From Candidatus Saccharimonadota bacterium (lineage in GTDB: Bacteria; Patescibacteriota; Gracilibacteria; UBA1369; 2-02-FULL-48-14): a stretch of 32,000 nucleotides of DNA. A model generated the notes under the pieces. The model did not search any database. It was not told the DNA's origin and saw only the letters and a program-made list of their open reading frames with translations. Below are positions 5,604 to 22,393 of the stretch, one piece after another (the stretch's first letter is position 1; the number at the start of each line of letters is the position of its first letter). A program made the position numbers and the translations under genes. The stretch lies in NCBI GenBank assembly GCA_016699145.1, contig CP064962.1, forward strand, positions 570,001 through 602,000, in the 5' to 3' direction.

Positions 5604-5930
5604 ATGAACATCGCTCAGACCATTCTCAAGCCGATCATGACTGAAAAAAGTGTGAGTCAAGAAGTGAAGAACAAGTTTAGTTTCATCGTTCACGATGCAG
5701 CCACCAAAGTGGATGTGAAAAACGCACTCATGGAACTGTACGGAGTTAAAGTGGACAAAGTGAATATCCTTCACGGTCTACCAAAATTTCGCCTCGGGAA
5801 AAGCCGCAAGCCCATGCAAAAGCGTGCCGCCACTCGACGTGCCATTGTGACTCTAAAAGCAGGTGAAAAGCTCGATCTCGCTAAAACTGCAAAACCCTCT
5901 AAATCCAAAGCCGCTGCGGCTTCCAACTAA
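5604..5930 (+). CDS. rplW: 50S ribosomal protein L23 (uL23)
   Basis: ILKPIMTEKS...FIVHDAATKVDVKNALMELYGVKV pattern, with a short K/A/S tail. Confidence 0.93.
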   Translation: MNIAQTILKPIMTEKSVSQEVKNKFSFIVHDAATKVDVKNALMELYGVKVDKVNILHGLPKFRLGKSRKPMQKRAATRRAIVTLKAGEKLDLAKTAKPSKSKAAAASN

Positions 5931-5935
5931 AGCAT

Positions 5936-6793
5936 ATGCCACTCAAGAAAGTTAAAAAAACGGGAAACGCTCGTCGTGAAATGAGCATCCTCACCTATGA
6001 GGAAGTGACCACGAACAAGCCATTCAAAAAATTGCTCAAAGCTCAAAAAGAGTATGCTGGACGCAATGCACGTGGAGTCATCACCGTGCGTCACCGTGGA
6101 GCCGGTAATAAGACCAAGCTTCGTATTGTGGATTTCAAACAGACCGACAAACTCAACATCGAAGCCACCGTTAAAACAGTGGAATACGATCCCAATCGCT
6201 CAGCCTTCATCATGCTCGTTTGCTACAAAGATGGAGAGTATCGCTATCAATTGGCTCCCGAAGGGATCAAGGTTGGAGATCGCATTGTGACCGCAGACAA
6301 AACCCGTGCTCGCACCGGAAACCGCATGATGCTTGAAAATATCCCTGTGGGCTTCGATATATACAACGTGCAAGTGGACCTCAACGGACCCGGCCAATTG
6401 GCCAAGTCTGCGGGTTCTGTCGCAAAGCTTGTTTCCCTGGATGGGCAGTACGCTCAAGTACAACTCCCTTCCGGAGAAGTGCGCTTCGTTCAAAAGAAAT
6501 GTTTCGCTAGCATCGGACGGGTGTCCAACCTCGATCATGGAAATATATCGATTGGTAAAGCGGGACGCAGCCGCTGGATGGGTCTCCGCCCTGAAGTGCG
6601 TGGTAAGGTTATGAACCCTTGCGACCACCCTCACGGAGGAGGAGAAGGAAACTGTCCCATCGGTATGAAATATCCTAAGACTCCTTGGGGGCTTCACGCT
6701 CTGGGCGTAGCAACTCGCCGTCGAAAATACACAGATAAGTGGATTGTGAAGACTCGAAAGGGTAAGATGCTCGCTGAACTCAATAATCTCTAA
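5936..6793 (+). CDS. rplB: 50S ribosomal protein L2 (uL2)
   Basis: GRNARGVITVRHRGAGNK... and VRGKVMNPCDHPHGGGEG motifs. Confidence 0.97.
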   Translation: MPLKKVKKTGNARREMSILTYEEVTTNKPFKKLLKAQKEYAGRNARGVITVRHRGAGNKTKLRIVDFKQTDKLNIEATVKTVEYDPNRSAFIMLVCYKDGEYRYQLAPEGIKVGDRIVTADKTRARTGNRMMLENIPVGFDIYNVQVDLNGPGQLAKSAGSVAKLVSLDGQYAQVQLPSGEVRFVQKKCFASIGRVSNLDHGNISIGKAGRSRWMGLRPEVRGKVMNPCDHPHGGGEGNCPIGMKYPKTPWGLHALGVATRRRKYTDKWIVKTRKGKMLAELNNL

Positions 6794-14387: not shown

Positions 14388-15032
14388 ATGGATCTCGTAC
14401 TCTTCGGAATGCAAGGCTCCGGAAAAGGCACGCAAAGCAAAGCCATCGCTGAACATTGTGGACTCCTTGTTTTTGAAACAGGAGCTGAACTTCGCCGTCT
14501 CTCCACAGAAGATTCCGAACTGGCTCACAAGGTGAAAAGCATCATCGAATCTGGACATTTGGTGCCCACCGAAGTGGTGATGGAAATCATCGCAGATTTC
14601 TTGCACCGCCTTCCCACGGGGAAGAATGCTCTTTTCGATGGCATACCTCGCAGTGGTGATCAAAAGGAACAATTCGATGCCCTGATGGTAAAAGAAGGCC
14701 GCTCTTTCAAAGGCCTACTCATTGAACTGAGCGAAGAAGAAGCGGTGAAACGTCTCACCACTCGCCGCATGTGCCCCGCCTGCAAAACCATTTATCCGGC
14801 CAGCTACAGCCAAGACAACTGTGAAAAAGACAGCAGCACACTGGTGACTCGTCAGGACGATACTCCCGAAGCCATTCGCGTGCGTCTAGACACCTTCCTC
14901 GAAAAAACTGTGCCTGTGATCAATGCCTACAAAACAGAAGGAAAAATGCTGACCGTTAAAGGAGAGCAAGCCATCGAAAAAGTGACTTTGGACATTCAAG
15001 AGGTCCTTAAAACGGACTTCTCATGGGCATGA
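14388..15032 (+). CDS. adk: adenylate kinase
   Basis: P-loop GMQGSGKGTQ, LID segment CPACKTIY...C...TRQDD, and position after secY. Confidence 0.93.
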   Translation: MDLVLFGMQGSGKGTQSKAIAEHCGLLVFETGAELRRLSTEDSELAHKVKSIIESGHLVPTEVVMEIIADFLHRLPTGKNALFDGIPRSGDQKEQFDALMVKEGRSFKGLLIELSEEEAVKRLTTRRMCPACKTIYPASYSQDNCEKDSSTLVTRQDDTPEAIRVRLDTFLEKTVPVINAYKTEGKMLTVKGEQAIEKVTLDIQEVLKTDFSWA

Positions 15033-15796
15033 CTAAAGTAAAAACGCCGGAACAAATCAAAGCCATGCGGGAAAGTTGCCACATCCTTGGGCTCATTTTA
15101 AAAGAGCTCGAAGACATGACGGTGCCAGGCATCACTCCCATGGATCTGGAGCGCCGCGCCGAAGAACTCTGCGCAAAGTACAAAGTGCGCCCCGCCTTCA
15201 AAGGCTATCACGGCTATCCCTACATTTTGTGCACCTCCGTAAACGACCAAGTGGTGCACGCCTTCCCGACTGAAGTCCCTCTGCAAGAAGGGGATATTCT
15301 TTCGATTGATGGTGGAGTCGTGGTGAGCGGCATGGTCAGCGACTCGGCTGTAGCGGTGGTGGTGGGACAAAAAACTTCAGACCTCGCTCAGCGACTCGTA
15401 GACACCTGCATCAAAGCCATGTGGGCGGGCATTCATCAGGTGAAGGATGGATGCCGTGTGGGAGACATCGGTCATGCCATTCAAAGGGTCGTGGAAGACG
15501 CCGGCTTCACTGTAATCACCGAACTCACCGGCCATGGCATCGGAGAAAACATGCATGAAGCTCCTTACATCTTGAATTACGGTGAACCTGGCAAAGGGAC
15601 ACAGCTTCGTGCCGGAATGACCATCGCAATCGAACCCATCATTTGCACGGGCAAAAATGCCATCGAAACCCTCGATGACGACTGGACCCTCGTGACCACC
15701 GACGGCAGCCTCGCCATGCAACACGAACACACCGTGCTCATCACCAAAACCGGCTACGAAGTGCTCAGCTTGAGGCCTGGGGAGAAGGAGGTATAA
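15023..15796 (+). CDS. map: type I methionine aminopeptidase
   Basis: FKGYHGYPYILCTSVNDQVVHAFP, DGGVVVSGMVSDSA, HGIGENMHE and TIAIEP...HEHTVLIT metal-ligand pattern. It overlaps adk by 10 nt. Confidence 0.95.
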   Translation: MGMTKVKTPEQIKAMRESCHILGLILKELEDMTVPGITPMDLERRAEELCAKYKVRPAFKGYHGYPYILCTSVNDQVVHAFPTEVPLQEGDILSIDGGVVVSGMVSDSAVAVVVGQKTSDLAQRLVDTCIKAMWAGIHQVKDGCRVGDIGHAIQRVVEDAGFTVITELTGHGIGENMHEAPYILNYGEPGKGTQLRAGMTIAIEPIICTGKNAIETLDDDWTLVTTDGSLAMQHEHTVLITKTGYEVLSLRPGEKEV

Positions 15797-15821
15797 AATG
15801 AACGCACCTTAAACTCCTCGC

Positions 15822-16370
15822 ATGAAAAAAATCTTCTTATTGCTCAGTCTCAGTCTTTTAATATTGACCGGCTGCGTTAACAGTGAAGAACAAAGCATGA
15901 AACTGACTGAACATGCAAATCCTGAAATTTGCCAAGAAGGAATCAAGGGTTCTGAACTTTCAGATGTTCTTCCTGAACAAATCACACGCTGTTTTTCTTT
16001 GGGGGATCTCACTCTCGCCTTTGTGACTCAACCCAACGCGTGGAATGCCCTCCCCGAAACTCGAGTCTGGGAATCAGAAGGTAATATTGCCTGGAGCGGC
16101 CTTCTTGCCAAACCGATCAAAGGAAAGTGGGAACTTTTATATAAAATCCCCGATGAAGATTTCAACCCTGTGAACCTCATCTTAGAGGGTGAGCAATTGA
16201 TTTTAGATGCCGCCGACGATTCCGGAGCCGGTAGTGGCGAAGGGGCCCTACAACGTTACGTGTATCCTGTAGGGGTAGCAGATGAACTACTCAAGACTTG
16301 GCAAAAACTCAAGTGCACAGGCCAATACATCCCTGAGACCTACAAGTACGAAGCATTTTTGTGTACATAA
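15822..16370 (+). CDS. hypothetical lipoprotein
   Basis: Signal peptide MKKIFLLLSLSLLILTGC with an L-T-G-C lipobox. No recognisable domain. Confidence 0.7.
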   Translation: MKKIFLLLSLSLLILTGCVNSEEQSMKLTEHANPEICQEGIKGSELSDVLPEQITRCFSLGDLTLAFVTQPNAWNALPETRVWESEGNIAWSGLLAKPIKGKWELLYKIPDEDFNPVNLILEGEQLILDAADDSGAGSGEGALQRYVYPVGVADELLKTWQKLKCTGQYIPETYKYEAFLCT

Positions 16371-16374
16371 AAAC

Positions 16375-17163
16375 TCATACTTTCTTCCTTTTCTCCTTGG
16401 AAGGTGCTTCCATCTGATATTTTTCTGCAGCCTCCCAAGCCAGTTCAAAAACCTGCTTAAACAAATGAGTGATCTCTTTGCTTTCAATGATGATCCCAAG
16501 TTTCTCCTTCCAATCAGCAATCATGATTTTATCGTCAAAGAAATTCACTTCGGGCGTAAAATCCAACTTTGATTTGGGAATGATTCGACTCGTTCTCAAG
16601 TGCAACTGATCTTTTTCGTGCAAGTCTCGATCCACCGGCGTATCCATCAAAATCCCTCGAATAGGAATTCCTTTCTCTGCACGACGTTCATAGTACCGCG
16701 GGAAATACCAACCCAAAAGATCTTGATTCACCTGAGCATTCGCAAAAGCACGGATTTCTTCTTTGGAAGTTAGGGTTTCTTCATACACACGGACCAGCCC
16801 TTCTTCTCCCTCATAAAAATACACACGTGGTCGATCCGACAAAGCGTGATAATGAGTCGTCAATTCAGGCAGTATCCTCTTTGCTTCCTGAGAAAGCCTC
16901 AAAAAACGATCCGCTTCTTCTTTAAGATAAGTGATGAGCTTCTCGGGGGGCTGCGCCCGATAACTTCGAAAGCCCTTATGTTCAGAAGAAACCAGAAGTC
17001 CGCGCTGCACCAAACTCTCCAGAATATCGTACGCCGTGGTCCGGTTTATACCCGCTTTCTTTGCGAGTGTCGAAACGGGTGACGCTTCCCCCATTTCTAA
17101 ACTGACCAAGTACAGTGCCGCTTCTTTAGAATTGAGCCCAAGTTTTTGCAATTGTTCCATCAT
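16375..17163 (-). CDS. TrmB-family transcriptional regulator
   Basis: The N-terminus LGLNSKEAALYLVSLEMGEASPVSTLAKKAGINRTTAYDILESLVQRGLL is the TrmB winged-HTH signature. About 170 aa of C-terminal domain follow. Confidence 0.8.
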   Translation of the reverse strand: MMEQLQKLGLNSKEAALYLVSLEMGEASPVSTLAKKAGINRTTAYDILESLVQRGLLVSSEHKGFRSYRAQPPEKLITYLKEEADRFLRLSQEAKRILPELTTHYHALSDRPRVYFYEGEEGLVRVYEETLTSKEEIRAFANAQVNQDLLGWYFPRYYERRAEKGIPIRGILMDTPVDRDLHEKDQLHLRTSRIIPKSKLDFTPEVNFFDDKIMIADWKEKLGIIIESKEITHLFKQVFELAWEAAEKYQMEAPSKEKRKKV

Positions 17164-17238
17164 AGAGCTGTGTGGGAAAATTTCGTCAGAATTACATTAA
17201 GGCTAATCTAACAGATTTAAAAAGTCAAATATTTTGTG

Positions 17239-17261
17239 GTAAAATTACAACGTAAATTTAC
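17239..17261. promoter_or_regulatory. candidate operator: GTAAAATTAC-AAC-GTAAATTTAC (the second unit is a perfect 10-bp palindrome)
   Basis: Read directly from the divergent TrmB / Cys-rich intergenic region. The site overlaps the -35 of the predicted Cys-rich gene promoter. Confidence 0.35.
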
Positions 17262-17284
17262 AAAACCTCAAAAAAAACTAGAAT
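17257..17284 (+). promoter_or_regulatory. candidate promoter of the Cys-rich gene: TTTACA-16-TAGAAT
   Basis: TTTACA at 17257-17262, a 16-nt spacer, and TAGAAT at 17279-17284, about 44 nt upstream of ATG 17328. Confidence 0.45.
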
Positions 17285-17327
17285 ACGGCTGTTTAACGCA
17301 TCGTATGGATTGGATCAAACTACTCTC

Positions 17328-18905
17328 ATGAAAACCTGTACCACCTGCCAAATTTCCTTTGAAGTCAGTCCCGAAGAAGTGGCCTTTTTGGAGAAAATTT
17401 CACCCGTTTACGGAACACAAAAATTTCCAATCCCTGAGCCTGAAAAATGCCCGGATTGTCGCCTGGCACAAAGAACCATTCAAAGAAACGAGCAATACCT
17501 CTATAACAACAACGGGAAAATTGCTCTCTATCATACAGACTCCCCTTTTAGAGTGGTGACCCACGAAGAATGGTGGAGCGAAAACTGGGATGCGCTTGCT
17601 TATGGACGTAACGTGGATTTTTCAAGAAATTTCTTCGAACAAATCCAGGAAATCAATTTGCAAATCCCTCGAGTGAACTTGATCCAAGTCAGCAATGAAA
17701 ATTGCCCTTACACCACGGGAACGGCCTACAGCAAAAATTGCTACCTCATCAACTGCAGTGAAAACGACGAAGATTGTTTTTACGGCAAGTTGATTCAATC
17801 CTGCAAAGACGTGATGGACTCGGCTTACTGCTACGACAGCGAGTTTTTATACGAATGTTTTTATGTTAAGAACTGCTACAATTGCCGTTACGTGTATTAC
17901 AGCCAAAATGCCTACGACTGCTCTTTTTGCGACAACGTGGCCCGCTCGAGCAATTGCTTCCTTTGCACAGGTTTAACTGGAAAAGAATATCACTTCATGA
18001 ATCAGCCTGTTTCAAAAGAAGAGTATGCGATCAAAGTCGCCGAGGCAATGAAAGATTTAACAAAAACAAAAGCCATTTTTGACGAAATGCGTGCCCGCAG
18101 AATTTATAAATACGCCAACATTGTAAGCAGCGAAAATTCAACTGGAGACTTTTTGACAAACTGCAAAAACTGCACCGAAAGCTACGACATGAACGACAGT
18201 GAAGACTGCAAATACGTGACAGTTGGCGTGCAAGTGAAAGATTTGATAGACTGCTCCAACATGTACATCAAACCCGAGTTGAACTATCAAGTGATGGGGA
18301 CGATCGGAACTTACAATGTGATTTTTTCGACCTATATTTTCAATTCACAAAATGTAGCCTACAGCCAATTTTGCTACAACTCTAAAGATCTATTTGGATG
18401 CGTGGGACTGCGAAACAAACAGTATTGCATTTTGAACAAGCAGTACACAAAAGAAGAGTACGAAACCTTAGTCCCCAAAGTCATCGCTTTGATGGGCAGT
18501 GATTTTGGAAAATTCTTCCCTGCCAAGCATTCAGCCTTTGCCTACAATGAAACTGTGGCCAACGACTATGTGCCTCTAACGCGAGAACAAGCCCTGGCCC
18601 AAGGTTATCGATGGCGCGAAAAAGACATGAAAGAGTATCAACCCGCTCACGGAGACCGCTTGGCTTGCGAGAGCTGCGGAAAAAACTACAAACCGATTCC
18701 TCAAGAAATCGCTCGTCTCAAAGAATTCCCGGTGCCAAGCAAATGCCCAGACTGTAGACACATGACACGGATGCGCTTACGCAATCCCCACAAGATTTAC
18801 TTACGCAACTGTTCAAAATGCAAGGGCCCCATGAATTCAACCTTTGCACCCGAAAGACCTGAAACCGTTTACTGCGAAAAGTGTTACCTGGCAGAGCTCT
18901 ATTGA
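17328..18905 (+). CDS. cysteine-rich, internally duplicated zinc-ribbon protein of unknown function (525 aa, 32 Cys)
   Basis: The terminal modules are CxxC...CPDCR (N-terminus) and CESC...CPDCR...CSKC...CEKC (C-terminus). Two central Cys-ladder blocks each end in C(T/V)GL..K.Y....N...(S/T)KEEY. ATG 17328 is preferred over TTG 17310. Confidence 0.75.
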   Translation: MKTCTTCQISFEVSPEEVAFLEKISPVYGTQKFPIPEPEKCPDCRLAQRTIQRNEQYLYNNNGKIALYHTDSPFRVVTHEEWWSENWDALAYGRNVDFSRNFFEQIQEINLQIPRVNLIQVSNENCPYTTGTAYSKNCYLINCSENDEDCFYGKLIQSCKDVMDSAYCYDSEFLYECFYVKNCYNCRYVYYSQNAYDCSFCDNVARSSNCFLCTGLTGKEYHFMNQPVSKEEYAIKVAEAMKDLTKTKAIFDEMRARRIYKYANIVSSENSTGDFLTNCKNCTESYDMNDSEDCKYVTVGVQVKDLIDCSNMYIKPELNYQVMGTIGTYNVIFSTYIFNSQNVAYSQFCYNSKDLFGCVGLRNKQYCILNKQYTKEEYETLVPKVIALMGSDFGKFFPAKHSAFAYNETVANDYVPLTREQALAQGYRWREKDMKEYQPAHGDRLACESCGKNYKPIPQEIARLKEFPVPSKCPDCRHMTRMRLRNPHKIYLRNCSKCKGPMNSTFAPERPETVYCEKCYLAELY

Positions 18906-18919
18906 TCCGGCTCCAGCCC

Positions 18920-19783
18920 CTACTCTTCCAAAAGCCCACTCACATACCACCGCATGAGATTCCAATTGCTGTTCTTGGGCTGCAAAGTATCGATGGCAAA
19001 GGTGTCTTTACAGGTTTCTGGCTTGGTTTCATCTTCACAAATCCTGATGGGATGAGAAGTCACGTAATCCACAGGCACAGGCACTGCCGATAAAACATTG
19101 ACCGTAGAGATCACATTGCCTCCATCGATTTCATAATTTTGATACTTCAAAACGTATTGCGTGGCCTGCGCCAAAGTGATGTCTGTTTCCAAGGCACCCA
19201 AAATCGTGGTCATGAGATCGAACAAAGTCGCGGCATCCTCCACACCCAAGCTTCTAAACTTATCTTGAATTCCTTGTAAAATGAGCTGCTGACGTTCCGC
19301 GCGAGAATAGTCCGACGTGGTGTGTCTAGAACGAGCCACGCGCAACGCCTCAGTTCCATCCAAATGATGCAGCCCCGCTTCATAGTACAAAGTCGAGCAA
19401 ACATCTCCATCGCAAACCTTATAAGTGGGGTCGATGAGATCCTCTTTCAAAGTCACATCAATGCCTCCCAATTCATTCACAATATCGCGGAAAACATACA
19501 TGTCCACCAAAGCATAATGCTGAATCTTATAACCCACCACATCTTCCACCGCTGCGAGCTGAGCCAAGACCCCTTTCCCAGCATAAATGCTGTTGATTTT
19601 TCTATTCTGATAATAAAGATCACGAGGAATACTGACCAAAACCACCTTCCCATCGACAGAGTCGACATGCGCAAAAATCATGGTGTCCACATTGGAACCA
19701 TGCTTCCCCATCAATAAAACATTCAAATTGTTAGGGTCATCAACGAGCTCAACATAGTCCGGGACGAAACTGGGGAGGTCCAA
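18920..19783 (-). CDS. LytR-CpsA-Psr (LCP) family domain, probably the C-terminal part of a frameshifted longer gene
   Basis: NVLLMGKHGSNVDTMIFAHVD...VSIPRDLYY...KINSIYA...GYKIQHYALVDMYVFRDIVNELGGIDV...LDGTEALRVARSRH...DYSRAERQQ is the LCP core. It has only a TTG start and no TM or signal peptide of its own. Confidence 0.8.
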   Translation of the reverse strand: MDLPSFVPDYVELVDDPNNLNVLLMGKHGSNVDTMIFAHVDSVDGKVVLVSIPRDLYYQNRKINSIYAGKGVLAQLAAVEDVVGYKIQHYALVDMYVFRDIVNELGGIDVTLKEDLIDPTYKVCDGDVCSTLYYEAGLHHLDGTEALRVARSRHTTSDYSRAERQQLILQGIQDKFRSLGVEDAATLFDLMTTILGALETDITLAQATQYVLKYQNYEIDGGNVISTVNVLSAVPVPVDYVTSHPIRICEDETKPETCKDTFAIDTLQPKNSNWNLMRWYVSGLLEE

Positions 19784-20946
19784 AGTTTTTTTTTACTCGA
19801 GAACTCAAGCAGCTGCACCGCCGTCACCAAACCTTGAGTGTCTTGTCCATCGGACAGGCTGACTTTCACTTCCCCTGTAGACTTGTCCAAAATTAAAAGA
19901 CGCAAGACAGCGCCCCCGGCATTCACAATAGGATACTGAATGGCCGTCTCTGTTTCCGTAGCAGAGCCCACGCTCAAACCCGCATTTTTCAAAGAGGCCT
20001 TAAAAGCAGGATCTTCCAAAACTTCGGCAATTTTAGCTTTCTGCTCATCCACTTTCTTCTGTAGTGCCGTGCGGGCATCCATTGCAGTGAATAAAGCGAG
20101 CAAGTCTTCTTGCACTTCAGCCACCGAAGCTCCGCTCAACTCCTCGGCAGGGGCCTGGGTGCTGCACACCAGCTGCGCATTCTTCTTTAGAACCTCACAT
20201 TCTGCAATAGGAGTGGCCTCCGAATTTTGAAAAACAATCACATAAGATCCCAGTTGATCCGCTTCAGGAAGCACTTTAAGTGATTTTTCCATCACAAGCG
20301 TTTGAAAATCTTGCCCGAGAATAAAAATGGACAAAGCTGTGCGCTGCGCGTTGACCTTTTGAACAGTGCTTCTCAACGTGTCCAAGTCCGTGTCCAGATG
20401 AGCCTTCACTTCAACGATGGAACTGTCCACCGACTGTCCATCGCTAAGCTCAAATTCAGACCCATAAACGTGTACCTCCACCTTGCCATCGTAAGCCAAA
20501 GAAAGAGTCAACAAAGGCACATTGCCCACACTGGCATCTAAAAAGATGTAGTCCAAGTCTTGCTCTGTATAAGTGCCCTGTGGGTTGCTCAGACTCAAAC
20601 CTTTTCCATTCCAGTAAGCATCTTGCACAGCGGTCTGCAAAGCAGCCAAATTGGCTTCATAACGCGCTTTGTTTTCTTCATAGACGCCCAAATTGTTCAC
20701 AAAATCAAAAAGCAAAGTACCGAGCTCATCTTCTTCGGATTCCTCTTCACCTCCAAAAAAATCAGACAAGCCACCGCTATCTTCAGCACCTGGGCTGAGT
20801 TCGACCAGCTTCTTTTCTAAGTGAGAGATTTGAAAAAATTGAAACACAACCGCCAAAATCAAAAGCGTGAGCAGGCCTCCTTGAAGGGAGAGTTTTTTGC
20901 TTTTAACAGAGGGTTCAGGAGTGGCGGGAGTTTTCTTGGCTGACAT
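19723..20946 (-). CDS. membrane-anchored hypothetical protein, the probable N-terminal part of the LCP protein
   Basis: MSAKKTPATPEPSVKSKKLSLQGGLLTLLILAVVFQFF (one TM helix) followed by an extracytoplasmic region of about 340 aa. It ends 20 codons after an A9 tract, where the LCP frame opens. ATG 20946 is preferred over the ORF-track start at 21081. Confidence 0.6.
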   Translation of the reverse strand: MSAKKTPATPEPSVKSKKLSLQGGLLTLLILAVVFQFFQISHLEKKLVELSPGAEDSGGLSDFFGGEEESEEDELGTLLFDFVNNLGVYEENKARYEANLAALQTAVQDAYWNGKGLSLSNPQGTYTEQDLDYIFLDASVGNVPLLTLSLAYDGKVEVHVYGSEFELSDGQSVDSSIVEVKAHLDTDLDTLRSTVQKVNAQRTALSIFILGQDFQTLVMEKSLKVLPEADQLGSYVIVFQNSEATPIAECEVLKKNAQLVCSTQAPAEELSGASVAEVQEDLLALFTAMDARTALQKKVDEQKAKIAEVLEDPAFKASLKNAGLSVGSATETETAIQYPIVNAGGAVLRLLILDKSTGEVKVSLSDGQDTQGLVTAVQLLEFSSKKKLWTSPVSSRTMLSSLMTLTI

Positions 20947-21007
20947 CGGACATGAGTCTACCGCAGAGCAGAAAACTACAAAAGAGATTTTTGAATTAAA
21001 AATTCCC

Positions 21008-21036
21008 TTGCAAAAGCCAAACCGCCCATGTAGAAT
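21008..21036 (+). promoter_or_regulatory. candidate promoter of infA-rpmJ-rpsMKD-rpoA: TTGCAA-17-TAGAAT
   Basis: TTGCAA at 21008-21013, a 17-nt spacer, and TAGAAT at 21031-21036, 28 nt upstream of the infA ATG. Confidence 0.5.
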
Positions 21037-21064
21037 CCCGCTGCTTTTATCTTTAACCAGATAA

Positions 21065-21391
21065 ATGACCAAACAAGTCATTCAGATTAAAGGAATCGTC
21101 GTAGAATGTTTACCTAATGCGACATTCCGTGTGAGACTGGATGACCCTGCCTACCCGACTGACCACGTAGTGCTCTGTCACCTCTCAGGCAAGATGCGGA
21201 TCAATTACATCCGAATCATCCCGGGAGATGCGGTCACCGTCGAGTTGACACCTTACGATCTATCGAAGGGGCGTATTGTTTTCCGCCACAAGAAAGGTGG
21301 ACCTCCAATGCCTACCCAAGAGGCTCCAGCTGTAGAAGCTGCTCCTCCAGCTCCCACTGAAACTTTAGACCCTAATAGCCCGGCTCAATGA
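21065..21391 (+). CDS. infA: translation initiation factor IF-1 with an internal insert and a ~33-aa Pro/Ala-rich C-terminal tail
   Basis: [17 protein letters not shown]...[37 protein letters not shown] is the S1-like IF-1 core. The tail is [31 protein letters not shown]. Confidence 0.93.
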
Positions 21392-21915: not shown

Positions 21916-22024
21916 AACTCACTCCAACTATTAATTTCATTATGACCGAAGAAACCAAGACTACCGCTGCAGCAGGTGCTGCAACCGCCACAGGGACTGA
22001 ACCTGCTGGAGAAGAAAAAAGACC

Positions 22025-22393
22025 GTGCGTCGCAACAAGAGGAAAACTGTTGTGAGTGGTACAATCTATGTACAAGCCGGTTTCAACAACACCATCATCA
22101 CCTTCACTGATGCTGATGGAAAAGTGATTTCTTGGGCCACTTCTGGGTCTTGCGGATTCAAAGGATCAAAGAAGGCGACCCCCTACGCGGCGCAAATGGC
22201 CGCCGAAGCCGCCGCTGAAAAAGCCAAAGCTTATGGATTCGAACGTGGAGACGTATTTGTAAAAGGAATCGGTCATGGACGTGAACAAGCCCTTCGTGGA
22301 CTCATTGCCCAAGGCATCACCATCCTCAGGATCGTAGACACCACTCCGGTGCCTCACAACGGATGCCGTCAACCTCGCACTCGACGAGTATAA
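22025..22393 (+). CDS. rpsK: 30S ribosomal protein S11 (uS11). The GTG start is as drawn; an upstream ATG at 21942 becomes in frame if one A is added to the A6 tract.
   Basis: GTIYVQAGFNNTIITFTDADGKVISWATSGSCGFKGSKKATPYAAQMAA...TPVPHNGCRQPRTRRV. Confidence 0.9.
   Translation: MRRNKRKTVVSGTIYVQAGFNNTIITFTDADGKVISWATSGSCGFKGSKKATPYAAQMAAEAAAEKAKAYGFERGDVFVKGIGHGREQALRGLIAQGITILRIVDTTPVPHNGCRQPRTRRV

Follow-up and report, generated by a model that had tools for sequence, protein, structure and literature searches.

A stalk-LCP gene split at a conserved A-run, and its variable neighbours, at the map-infA operon boundary of a Peregrinibacteria-like genome

Background

Do four genes that separate map from infA, within the most conserved gene string of a bacterial genome, work together as a module, or do they merely share an address? 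The question is raised by a 32,000-nt stretch of DNA (positions 570,001 to 602,000 of contig CP064962.1, assembly GCA_016699145.1; hereafter the window), in which ~5.3 kb lies between the last gene of the spc-type ribosomal operon and the first gene of the alpha-type operon and carries genes for a lipoprotein, a TrmB-family winged-helix regulator, a cysteine-rich (Cys-rich) protein, and a membrane-anchored LCP (LytR-CpsA-Psr) protein. A preliminary description, made from the letters alone, had proposed these genes as a functional module. Genes that are neighbours in such a string need not form a module, however, and an operon boundary that is followed by a promoter of its own offers genes a safe place to land. 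Our analysis leads us to regard the interval as probably composed of three independently evolving pieces at such a boundary, with one of its genes, here termed stalk-LCP, likely expressed by slippage on a run of A residues.

The host genome is a single contig of 1.34 Mb (46.8% GC) from the candidate phyla radiation (CPR; Peregrinibacteria-like), and homologues of the window's proteins came from Peregrinibacteria, Gracilibacteria, and other Patescibacteria. For comparison, secY and rpoA were located in 40 relatives, and the window's proteins were placed on the fetched regions by tblastn. Throughout, G000 is the window's genome, other G numbers are relatives, g and f numbers are genera and families, and L numbers are fetched loci. 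The frame of the stalk-LCP gene was compared at 38 junctions, 19 from the window's family and 19 from five further families; G000, G003, and G004 form the closest trio for the comparison of the A-run, with G004 the closest relative of all.

Results

A split stalk-LCP gene

The protein first described as membrane-anchored LCP does have both an anchor and an LCP domain, but they do not share a single open reading frame (ORF): two frames meet at a run of nine A (A9). The downstream ORF (as called, 18920-19783, minus strand) carries the LCP domain (PF03816, 112.9 bits against a cut-off of 24.6; TIGR00350, 104.8 bits against 62.3), scores far under the cut-offs of the NCBIfam equivalog models for TagU, LytR, and Cps2A, and retains the motifs NVDT, SIPRDLY, ALR.ARSRH, and RQQ that are conserved in the homologue alignment. 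It has no hydrophobic segment, anchor, or signal peptide of its own. The transmembrane (TM) anchor lies on the upstream ORF, in the other frame, and in in-frame relatives it is part of one chain with the LCP domain. An AlphaFold2 (AF2) model of this upstream half (pLDDT 84) shows a TM helix at residues 21-50 and then a stalk in which a unit of one long helix and a four-stranded sheet occurs three times, for which no PDB fold matched at E<0.001, the best being the YpeB C-terminal domain (E 3e-3).

At the junction in G000, the zero frame reads ...LLEFSSKKKLWTSPVSS... through the A9 run and stops 20 codons later, and in the -1 frame a TAA abuts the run on its upstream side and is followed by KKTLDLPSFVPDYVELVDD..., which leads directly into the LCP domain. 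The zero frame reads the run as three whole codons, AAA AAA AAA, which form an A_AAA_AAA heptamer exactly where the frames meet. The predicted fusion would have the junction peptide ...SSKKKTLDLPSF..., also written ...LLEFSSKKKTLDLPSFVPDYVELVDDPNNLNVLLMGK, and the unshifted zero-frame tail is ...SSKKKLWTSPVSSR. In-frame relatives read ...KKKT(L/M)DLP..., as the predicted fusion does, and fused database homologues of 637-756 aa align over the junction as ...KKTLDLP....

The same break recurs widely. Stalk and LCP domain are out of frame in 18 of the 19 genes of the window's family, always by -1 and at A9 (A10 in two), and the sole in-frame gene (G012) has A10 and reads VKKKTMDLP. In the five further families, all 19 junctions carry A9-A11; 14 are split (13 by -1, one by +1) and five are in frame. 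The zero frame of ten split genes ends two codons past the run. Over the six families, an A9-A11 run is thus present at 38/38 junctions, 32/38 are split, and 31/32 split genes would be corrected by -1. The length is A9 throughout the closest trio; two pattern scans of metagenome (JGI) contigs that allowed 8-12 bases returned zero matches and one match, the latter also A9. With the stalk domain as query, the gene was recovered from 77 of 201 genomes of the order, including G000, and outside the window's family never between map and infA. Separately, L046 (G092, f4) and L048 (G068, same genus) both carry A9, with one base fewer just past the run in G092.

Both halves are under purifying selection, and the run itself appears to be selected as well. 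Against relatives, the ratio of nonsynonymous to synonymous substitution (dN/dS) was 0.04-0.24 for the LCP half and 0.14-0.24 for the stalk, at dS of 0.8 to >2; such constraint, with synonymous sites near or beyond saturation, indicates that the LCP half is expressed. AAA makes up 70% of lysine codons genome-wide, and yet the three AAA codons of the run never became AAG; their persistence across dozens of lineages saturated at synonymous sites indicates selection on the nucleotides themselves. Runs of A or T of at least 8 nt are common in the genome (15 A9 and 9 T9, many in frame within long ORFs), so the case for the LCP run is its conservation, not its rarity. Finally, the LCP domain seems to need the upstream half, because it lacks a hydrophobic segment of its own and because the stalk-less genus (G010, G018) has a conventional TM-LCP gene, without the run.

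From these comparisons we conclude that the split is probably functional and that the full-length enzyme would be made through a one-base slip on the run; slippage as the mechanism, and two isoforms as its outcome, are what we infer from the genes. Ordinary decoding would yield a 407-aa anchor and stalk protein, and a one-base slip on A9 would restore the frame and yield a 675-aa stalk-LCP enzyme of ~75 kDa, such that one gene would give a short and a full-length isoform. The slip could consist of RNA polymerase inserting an extra A or of the ribosome moving -1 on A_AAA_AAA. Transcriptional slippage would be the simplest mechanism, given a run of 9-11 nt and no conserved downstream structure, while the in-phase heptamer also permits ribosomal -1 frameshifting. 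Under this interpretation, stalk-LCP is an old antisense gene shared throughout the family, and its product would be a glycopolymer ligase anchored in the membrane.

A regulator and its Cys-rich partner

The regulator carries an N-terminal TrmB winged helix-turn-helix (HTH) domain at residues 5-74 (PF01978, 46.5 bits, cut-off 25.6). Residues 100-262 matched no Pfam or NCBIfam domain, and no sugar-binding C-terminal effector domain was detected; scores against the NCBIfam TrmB equivalogs were 21-35 bits, compared with cut-offs of 530-650. It is one of 11 paralogues in the genome. Its orthologues at the same site in G002, G004, and G005 are 85-96% identical, and those beside type-1 Cys-rich genes (see below) elsewhere, in other genera, 40-67%.

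The partner was described beforehand as a 32-Cys duplicated zinc-ribbon protein, and this proved accurate for ribbons and cores alike: it has 32 cysteines, ten CxxC motifs, zinc ribbons in pairs at either end (N- versus C-terminal, E 6e-9), and two Cys-ladder beta-solenoid cores that are 32% identical to each other (E 2e-7). Its AF2 model (pLDDT 81, pTM 0.82) shows zinc-ribbon ends and solenoid-like cores. Foldseek found no fold match for it at E<0.001 in PDB or BFVD, and the resemblance to left-handed beta-helices was weak (E>0.5). Beyond zinc-ribbon matches, nothing significant came from Pfam, NCBIfam, PADLOC, PHROGs, or a PDB sequence profile. zf_Tbcl_2 (PF23477) aligned to the C-terminal ribbon only, at 17.9 bits and under its gathering cut-off of 27; some homologues carry precomputed PF23477 matches. 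The protein, which bears neither signal peptide nor TM segment, is cytoplasmic and a putative zinc-ribbon-mediated binding protein; lacking an export signal, it is unlikely to act directly beside the extracytoplasmic LCP domain.

The family is expanded and confined to the CPR, with more than 6,700 homologues detected, all unnamed, in Patescibacteria. Among 41 genomes including G000, copies number 0-18 per genome, usually in tandem arrays, and nine genomes have none. The island copy falls in a distinct "type-1" clade (tree support 100/99). Divergent pairs of a type-1 gene with an orthologue of the island TrmB were found at eight of nine loci from other genera or families (g9, g11, f8, f10, f14), none of them between map and infA, and the divergent TrmB/Cys-rich arrangement recurs in G000 itself (at 1,057,398) and on an Abawacabacteria contig. 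The pair is therefore a genuine recurrent two-gene unit.

Outside the window, G000 carries an array of seven Cys-rich paralogues (C1, 1049821-1064353). They have 24-43 Cys each, and one is cut down to 274 aa; at the head of the array stands a divergent paralogue of TrmB (1057398-1058156), and the array is interrupted by transposase- or HTH-looking ORFs (1058330-1060438). On the Abawacabacteria contig (L041, 1646-5834), small genes for "23S rRNA intervening sequence protein" (PF05635) are interleaved with Cys-rich genes and TrmB, and in L043 a Cys-rich array is flanked by AAA_14/DUF4143 ATPases, RNase H, and a Phd/YefM antitoxin. By style, these surroundings resemble variable regions or conflict systems.

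At the map-infA site the pair occurs only in the window's genus, and its two members have different histories. The island TrmBs form one tight clade (100/99), and the Cys-rich genes beside them fall in three different places of their tree: those of G000 and G004 nest inside genus g11 (97/94), that of G002 groups with a family-f8 copy, and G005 carries an array-type paralogue. The regulator stayed put and its Cys-rich partner was exchanged between species.

The preliminary description was also right that the island has promoter-like elements of its own. The best is TTTACA-16-TAGAAT at 17257-17284, a 10/12 match facing the Cys-rich gene. On the trmB strand, a box TGACGAAAnnTTTCCACAC (~17164-17190) abuts the trmB start and is conserved at type-1 loci of g1, g9, g11, f8, and f10, the remaining spacer not being conserved. 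The box, next to the regulator's own start, is a candidate operator through which TrmB probably controls the pair. We picture a TrmB/Cys-rich pair, conserved across the order, that would have landed between map and infA in the window's genus.

The third piece, the lipoprotein, is single-copy in the genome and was found at this site beyond G000 only in G003 (65% identity) and G004 (75%). It had no Pfam match and only weak NCBIfam matches to lipoprotein N-termini, and the gene is restricted to the window's genus.

An operon boundary with variable cargo

The gene list, strands, and cysteine count first reported for the interval all agreed with the ORF map and domain scans (Table 1), and the ~5.3-kb interruption is real. 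The two convergent pairs have gaps of 4 and 14 nt. The distance from secY to rpoA is 8.7 kb in the window, 3.3-3.7 kb in most of the order's other families, up to 5.0 kb in other families that carry inserts, and 3.8-12.8 kb inside the window's family. Of four other-family genomes examined, two have a map-infA spacer of 119-129 nt (G027, G040) and the others unrelated genes.

Table 1 Features of the map-infA interval in the window, and genes found in the same gap of family relatives
Feature	Position	Strand	Remarks and basis
map (methionine aminopeptidase)	15023..15796	+	Final gene of the spc-type operon, left flank; Pfam Peptidase_M24, E 1.9e-44
Lipoprotein, 182 aa	15822..16370	+	Signal peptide, lipobox LTGC
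TrmB-family winged-helix regulator, 262 aa	16375..17163	-	PF01978
Divergent control region, trmB/Cys-rich gene	17164..17327	.	Conserved box and promoter-like site
Cys-rich protein, 525 aa (531 aa from TTG at 17310)	17328..18905	+	32 Cys, internal duplication
LCP (LytR-CpsA-Psr) catalytic half	18920..19785	-	-1 frame relative to stalk ORF; PF03816, TIGR00350
A9 run, coding strand	19786..19794	-	Putative slippery site; sequence
TM anchor and stalk, 407 aa from ATG at 20946	19723..20946	-	Zero-frame ORF; ORF map, AF2 model
Divergent promoter region, stalk-LCP/infA	20947..21064	.	Holds the infA promoter
infA (IF-1 with C-terminal tail)	21065..21391	+	First gene of the alpha-type operon, right flank; Pfam eIF-1a, E 9.4e-24
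Cargo in G003: radical-SAM enzyme, pyridoxal phosphate enzyme, different TrmB paralogue	map-infA gap		Pfam
Cargo in G022: SLH/GH39-like surface protein	map-infA gap		Pfam
Cargo in G002: MazF toxin	map-infA gap		Pfam
Cargo in G007: DUF3800	map-infA gap		Pfam

The comparison of this junction across relatives, which had been proposed beforehand as a check, revealed a hotspot with one conserved resident and otherwise unrelated content, which is largely the outcome named in advance as speaking against a module. The tblastn maps place an LCP gene, in antisense orientation, immediately before infA in 21 of the 23 genomes that represent the window's family, the other two (G006, G023) having a bare spacer. 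The DNA from map to the 3' end of the LCP gene measures 0-7 kb and is mostly unrelated between genera, only the LCP gene being shared; some of its ORFs gave no match at all. The window's order of lipoprotein, TrmB, Cys-rich gene, and LCP gene is repeated in G004 only. TrmB and a Cys-rich gene stand beside the LCP gene in G002 and G005, G001 has the LCP gene alone, and in 17 genomes of the family that gene stands by itself or beside other cargo. Apart from their being neighbours in one genus, we found nothing to connect the regulator/Cys-rich pair with the LCP gene. The interval thus appears to combine a family-level resident (stalk-LCP), a genus-level arrival (TrmB/Cys-rich), and a genus-restricted lipoprotein.

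Elsewhere at this gap, a 313-aa protein with a prepilin-like N-terminus in L025 (G036, f13) and an antisense patatin-like protein in L026 (G032, f9) were identified by eye, and the boundary serves as a landing site in other families too. In L032 (G020), a second, partial LCP-domain copy (5904-6350, 58% identity) lies ~650 nt past the first at the contig end, which suggests a tandem LCP duplication at the site.

The promoter from which the alpha-type operon was said to restart is present (TTGCAA-17-TAGAAT at 21008-21036, a 9/12 consensus match in the promoter scan), but its tie to the island did not hold, since it predates the inserts and is kept without them. Each of the 21 relatives examined has CTTGCAA-N17-TAGAATCC and a conserved leader ahead of infA. 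Three of them lack an LCP gene at this position (G006 and G027 with bare spacers, G036 with unrelated ORFs), and the leader is conserved as TGTAGAATCC...GCTTTTA after the promoter with or without an insert. The presence of this promoter in either case indicates that the map/infA junction is an ancestral boundary between transcription units, at which insertions need not disturb the expression of either ribosomal operon. The leader (21037-21064, TAGAATCCC..CTGCTTTTAYC), 3' of the -10 element, is as conserved across genera and families as the promoter; it has no Rfam match and could play a regulatory part in the alpha-type operon.

As to composition, the preliminary description judged the island more AT-rich than its flanks, and this is correct relative to the GC-rich ribosomal protein operons (49-50% GC, 73rd-82nd percentile of 1-kb windows) but not relative to the genome (44.8% versus 46.8%, 27th percentile). 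Compositional foreignness was consequently rejected, the GC content being ordinary for the genome. No tRNA, Rfam family, flanking repeat, integrase, or transposase was found at the interval.

Flanking genes

On the left flank, map orthologues are 55-87% identical in all relatives. On the right, the Pro/Ala-rich C-terminal tail of initiation factor 1 (IF-1) aligns over all 108 residues in G002, G003, and G004 of the genus and in G009 (g5). In most other relatives the match is limited to residues 1-80 to 1-100, which makes the tail a young, variable extension. Further downstream, ribosomal protein S11 has an Ala/Thr-rich N-terminal extension of ~35 aa (MTEETK...EEKK; rpsM-rpsK spacer, 21916-22030) that is conserved in the window's family and in frame in 10/10 family relatives checked (in G004, GAAGAAAAAAAGG with A7). 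In G000 the run is A6, the extension is out of frame, and a GTG-started S11 remains; this break is specific to the assembly and would be either a homopolymer error or a recent mutation.

Discussion

We consider it likely, on balance, that the map-infA interval holds three independently evolving pieces at an operon boundary and that its stalk-LCP gene is expressed by slippage. Several points weigh against this interpretation. Outside the window's family, judged by open-frame length, ~33 genes are in frame and ~22 split, and the run could equally be an on/off switch at the evolutionary or population level. The gene of G092 would be corrected by +1, not -1. GTG or TTG codons follow soon after the run in several split genes, from which independent initiation of the LCP ORF is possible. 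No common hairpin emerged from 70-nt minimum-free-energy folds downstream of the run in the 38 genes, and the lack of a conserved RNA structure weakens ribosomal frameshifting in particular. Lastly, all four genes are adjacent in the closest relative (G004) too, and a genus-specific functional link among them is possible.

A phase-variation switch, with slipped-strand mispairing of the DNA toggling glycopolymer attachment on and off in subpopulations, is the alternative that these points bring closest, and the pure homopolymer of 9-11 A in a surface-related gene, its length variation between lineages, the coexistence of in-frame and split states in the order, and the persistence of the run in in-frame genes would all fit such a switch. 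We nevertheless think it unlikely. Frame states follow clades and are not scattered, and the family is almost uniformly split despite saturated synonymous sites. The split genes share the -1 correction with a single exception; a random toggle should yield runs one A above the in-frame length as well, and none was seen. Moreover, consensus assemblies would have OFF as the majority in almost all populations of the family while the LCP half keeps dN/dS <0.25, and the one additional metagenome contig likewise carries A9.

Slippage on a conserved run thus accounts better for the gene, and it may be asked how far the argument extends. At its boldest, the whole order would make the stalked LCP ligase as an obligatory isoform pair via the A-run, which is retained even in in-frame stalk-LCP genes, and in the TrmB/Cys-ladder pair the regulator would be fixed and its partner exchangeable, drawn from a family that reaches 18 copies in a 1.2-Mb genome, like a diversifying recognition or conflict system. 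We offer this broader picture tentatively and hold it to be somewhat doubtful; if true, such LCP enzymes would work as mixed assemblies, in which the run determines the proportion of catalytic to non-catalytic subunits.

The single envelope module of regulator, metal-binding Cys-rich protein, lipoprotein, and LCP ligase, as originally proposed, now seems very unlikely. What speaks for it is the identical gene order in G004 and the adjacency of TrmB, Cys-rich gene, and LCP gene in G002 and G005. But all four genes occur together in G000 and G004 only, co-occurrence ends outside one genus, and the LCP gene stands alone in G001, G009, G013, and G021 or accompanies unrelated cargo. Conversely, the TrmB/Cys-rich pair occupies eight other loci without an LCP gene, several of the nine genomes without a Cys-rich gene keep the LCP gene, and the Cys-rich partner at the site has been replaced by non-orthologous copies. 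The location of the proteins also argues against joint action, since the LCP domain acts outside the membrane and the Cys-rich protein carries neither a signal peptide nor a TM segment. What survives of the proposal is its parts, namely the regulator/Cys-rich pair and the conserved envelope function of the LCP gene, and not their working together.

A recently acquired mobile island within the ribosomal super-operon is an even more improbable explanation in our view. It would agree with a GC content under that of the flanks, with the MazF and DUF3800 cargo of relatives, and with the Cys-rich genes of G000 and G004, which nest in another genus at 83-84% identity, compared with 71% for SecY. That signal of transfer or recombination is, however, confined to the Cys-rich gene; inheritance is vertical for the LCP part within the family and for TrmB within the genus, integrase, transposase, tRNA, and flanking direct repeats were not found, GC is ordinary for the genome, and spacers of 4-146 nt leave no room for recombination sites.

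To read the split LCP gene as a pseudogene, as a sequencing error, or as a pair of independent genes is scarcely credible: homopolymers are classic sites of sequencing error, rpsK in the same assembly is broken at A6 where the closest relative has an in-frame A7, and a TTG codon follows the run in the LCP frame, but 31 further genomes, each assembled independently, show the same break, the LCP frame is free of stops and under strong purifying selection, its ORF has no export signal while the stalk-less lineage fuses TM straight to LCP, and the -1-frame protein sequence is conserved from the first codon past the run.

Together, these comparisons document a putative recoding site in 38 genes from six families, in a cell-wall ligase of unculturable bacteria. 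Automatic annotation splits stalk-LCP into two unrelated genes, or into a truncated protein and an anchor-less LCP, and envelope reconstructions for Peregrinibacteria will miss or misread it. For the Cys-rich CPR family, which can fill ~2% of these tiny genomes, one subfamily with a dedicated regulator and a conserved upstream box provides an experimental handle.

Comparison with known systems

Literature searches on slippage with LytR, or on frameshifting in Peregrinibacteria, returned nothing relevant; the Peribacteria genome paper describes large exported Cys-rich proteins of a different class and mentions no LCP recoding. The island TrmB shares with Thermococcales TrmB, TrmBL1, and TrmBL2 the PF01978 winged helix, a length near that of TrmBL2 (264 aa), and an orientation divergent to its presumed target gene, as is usual for local regulators; it differs in being bacterial (CPR), in having no detected sugar-binding C-terminal domain, and in its 11 paralogues within 1.34 Mb. 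The terminal ribbons of the Cys-rich protein resemble the treble-clef domains zf_Tbcl (PF13451) and zf_Tbcl_2 (PF23477; CxxC-x17-CxxC), whereas its bulk consists of two Cys-ladder solenoid cores that match no family and no solved fold.

For the split gene, homopolymer contingency loci are known from surface-glycan genes of Campylobacter, Haemophilus, and Neisseria. They likewise place a homopolymer in a surface-glycan gene with in-frame and out-of-frame versions among relatives, but stalk-LCP has kept its frame state over long divergence, almost always in one and the same out-of-frame form. Programmed recoding offers a closer parallel. The tau and gamma forms of dnaX arise in E. coli by -1 ribosomal frameshifting on A_AAA_AAG and in Thermus thermophilus by transcriptional slippage on A9, and insertion sequence (IS) elements produce orfA/orfAB fusions by recoding. 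As in these, a run of A in lysine codons, here a perfect A_AAA_AAA heptamer, would give two products per gene in a fixed proportion. The shifted frame of dnaX terminates immediately and yields the short product, whereas that of stalk-LCP would yield the long one, and no stimulatory hairpin or Shine-Dalgarno-like element was found at the stalk-LCP run.

The nearest, experimentally proven precedent is tssM of the type VI secretion system in Citrobacter rodentium and Yersinia pseudotuberculosis, in which transcriptional frameshifting on poly-A gives a short and a full-length form, and the system requires the two forms as well as the proportion between them (Gueguen et al. 2014, PMC4256274). Like stalk-LCP, tssM is an envelope gene seemingly truncated just past an A-run, the full-length form of which carries a functional C-terminal domain; it differs in having A11, in belonging to Enterobacteria, and in that slippage at the level of RNA polymerase was shown experimentally, as compared with the A9-A11 of an order-wide CPR LCP gene with putative slippage. 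Among LCP ligases themselves, such as TagT/U/V of B. subtilis and Cps2A of S. pneumoniae, the plan of an N-terminal anchor followed by an extracytoplasmic catalytic domain would be the same, but here a 340-aa stalk of three repeats lies in between, and the catalytic domain would be reached only via a frame shift.

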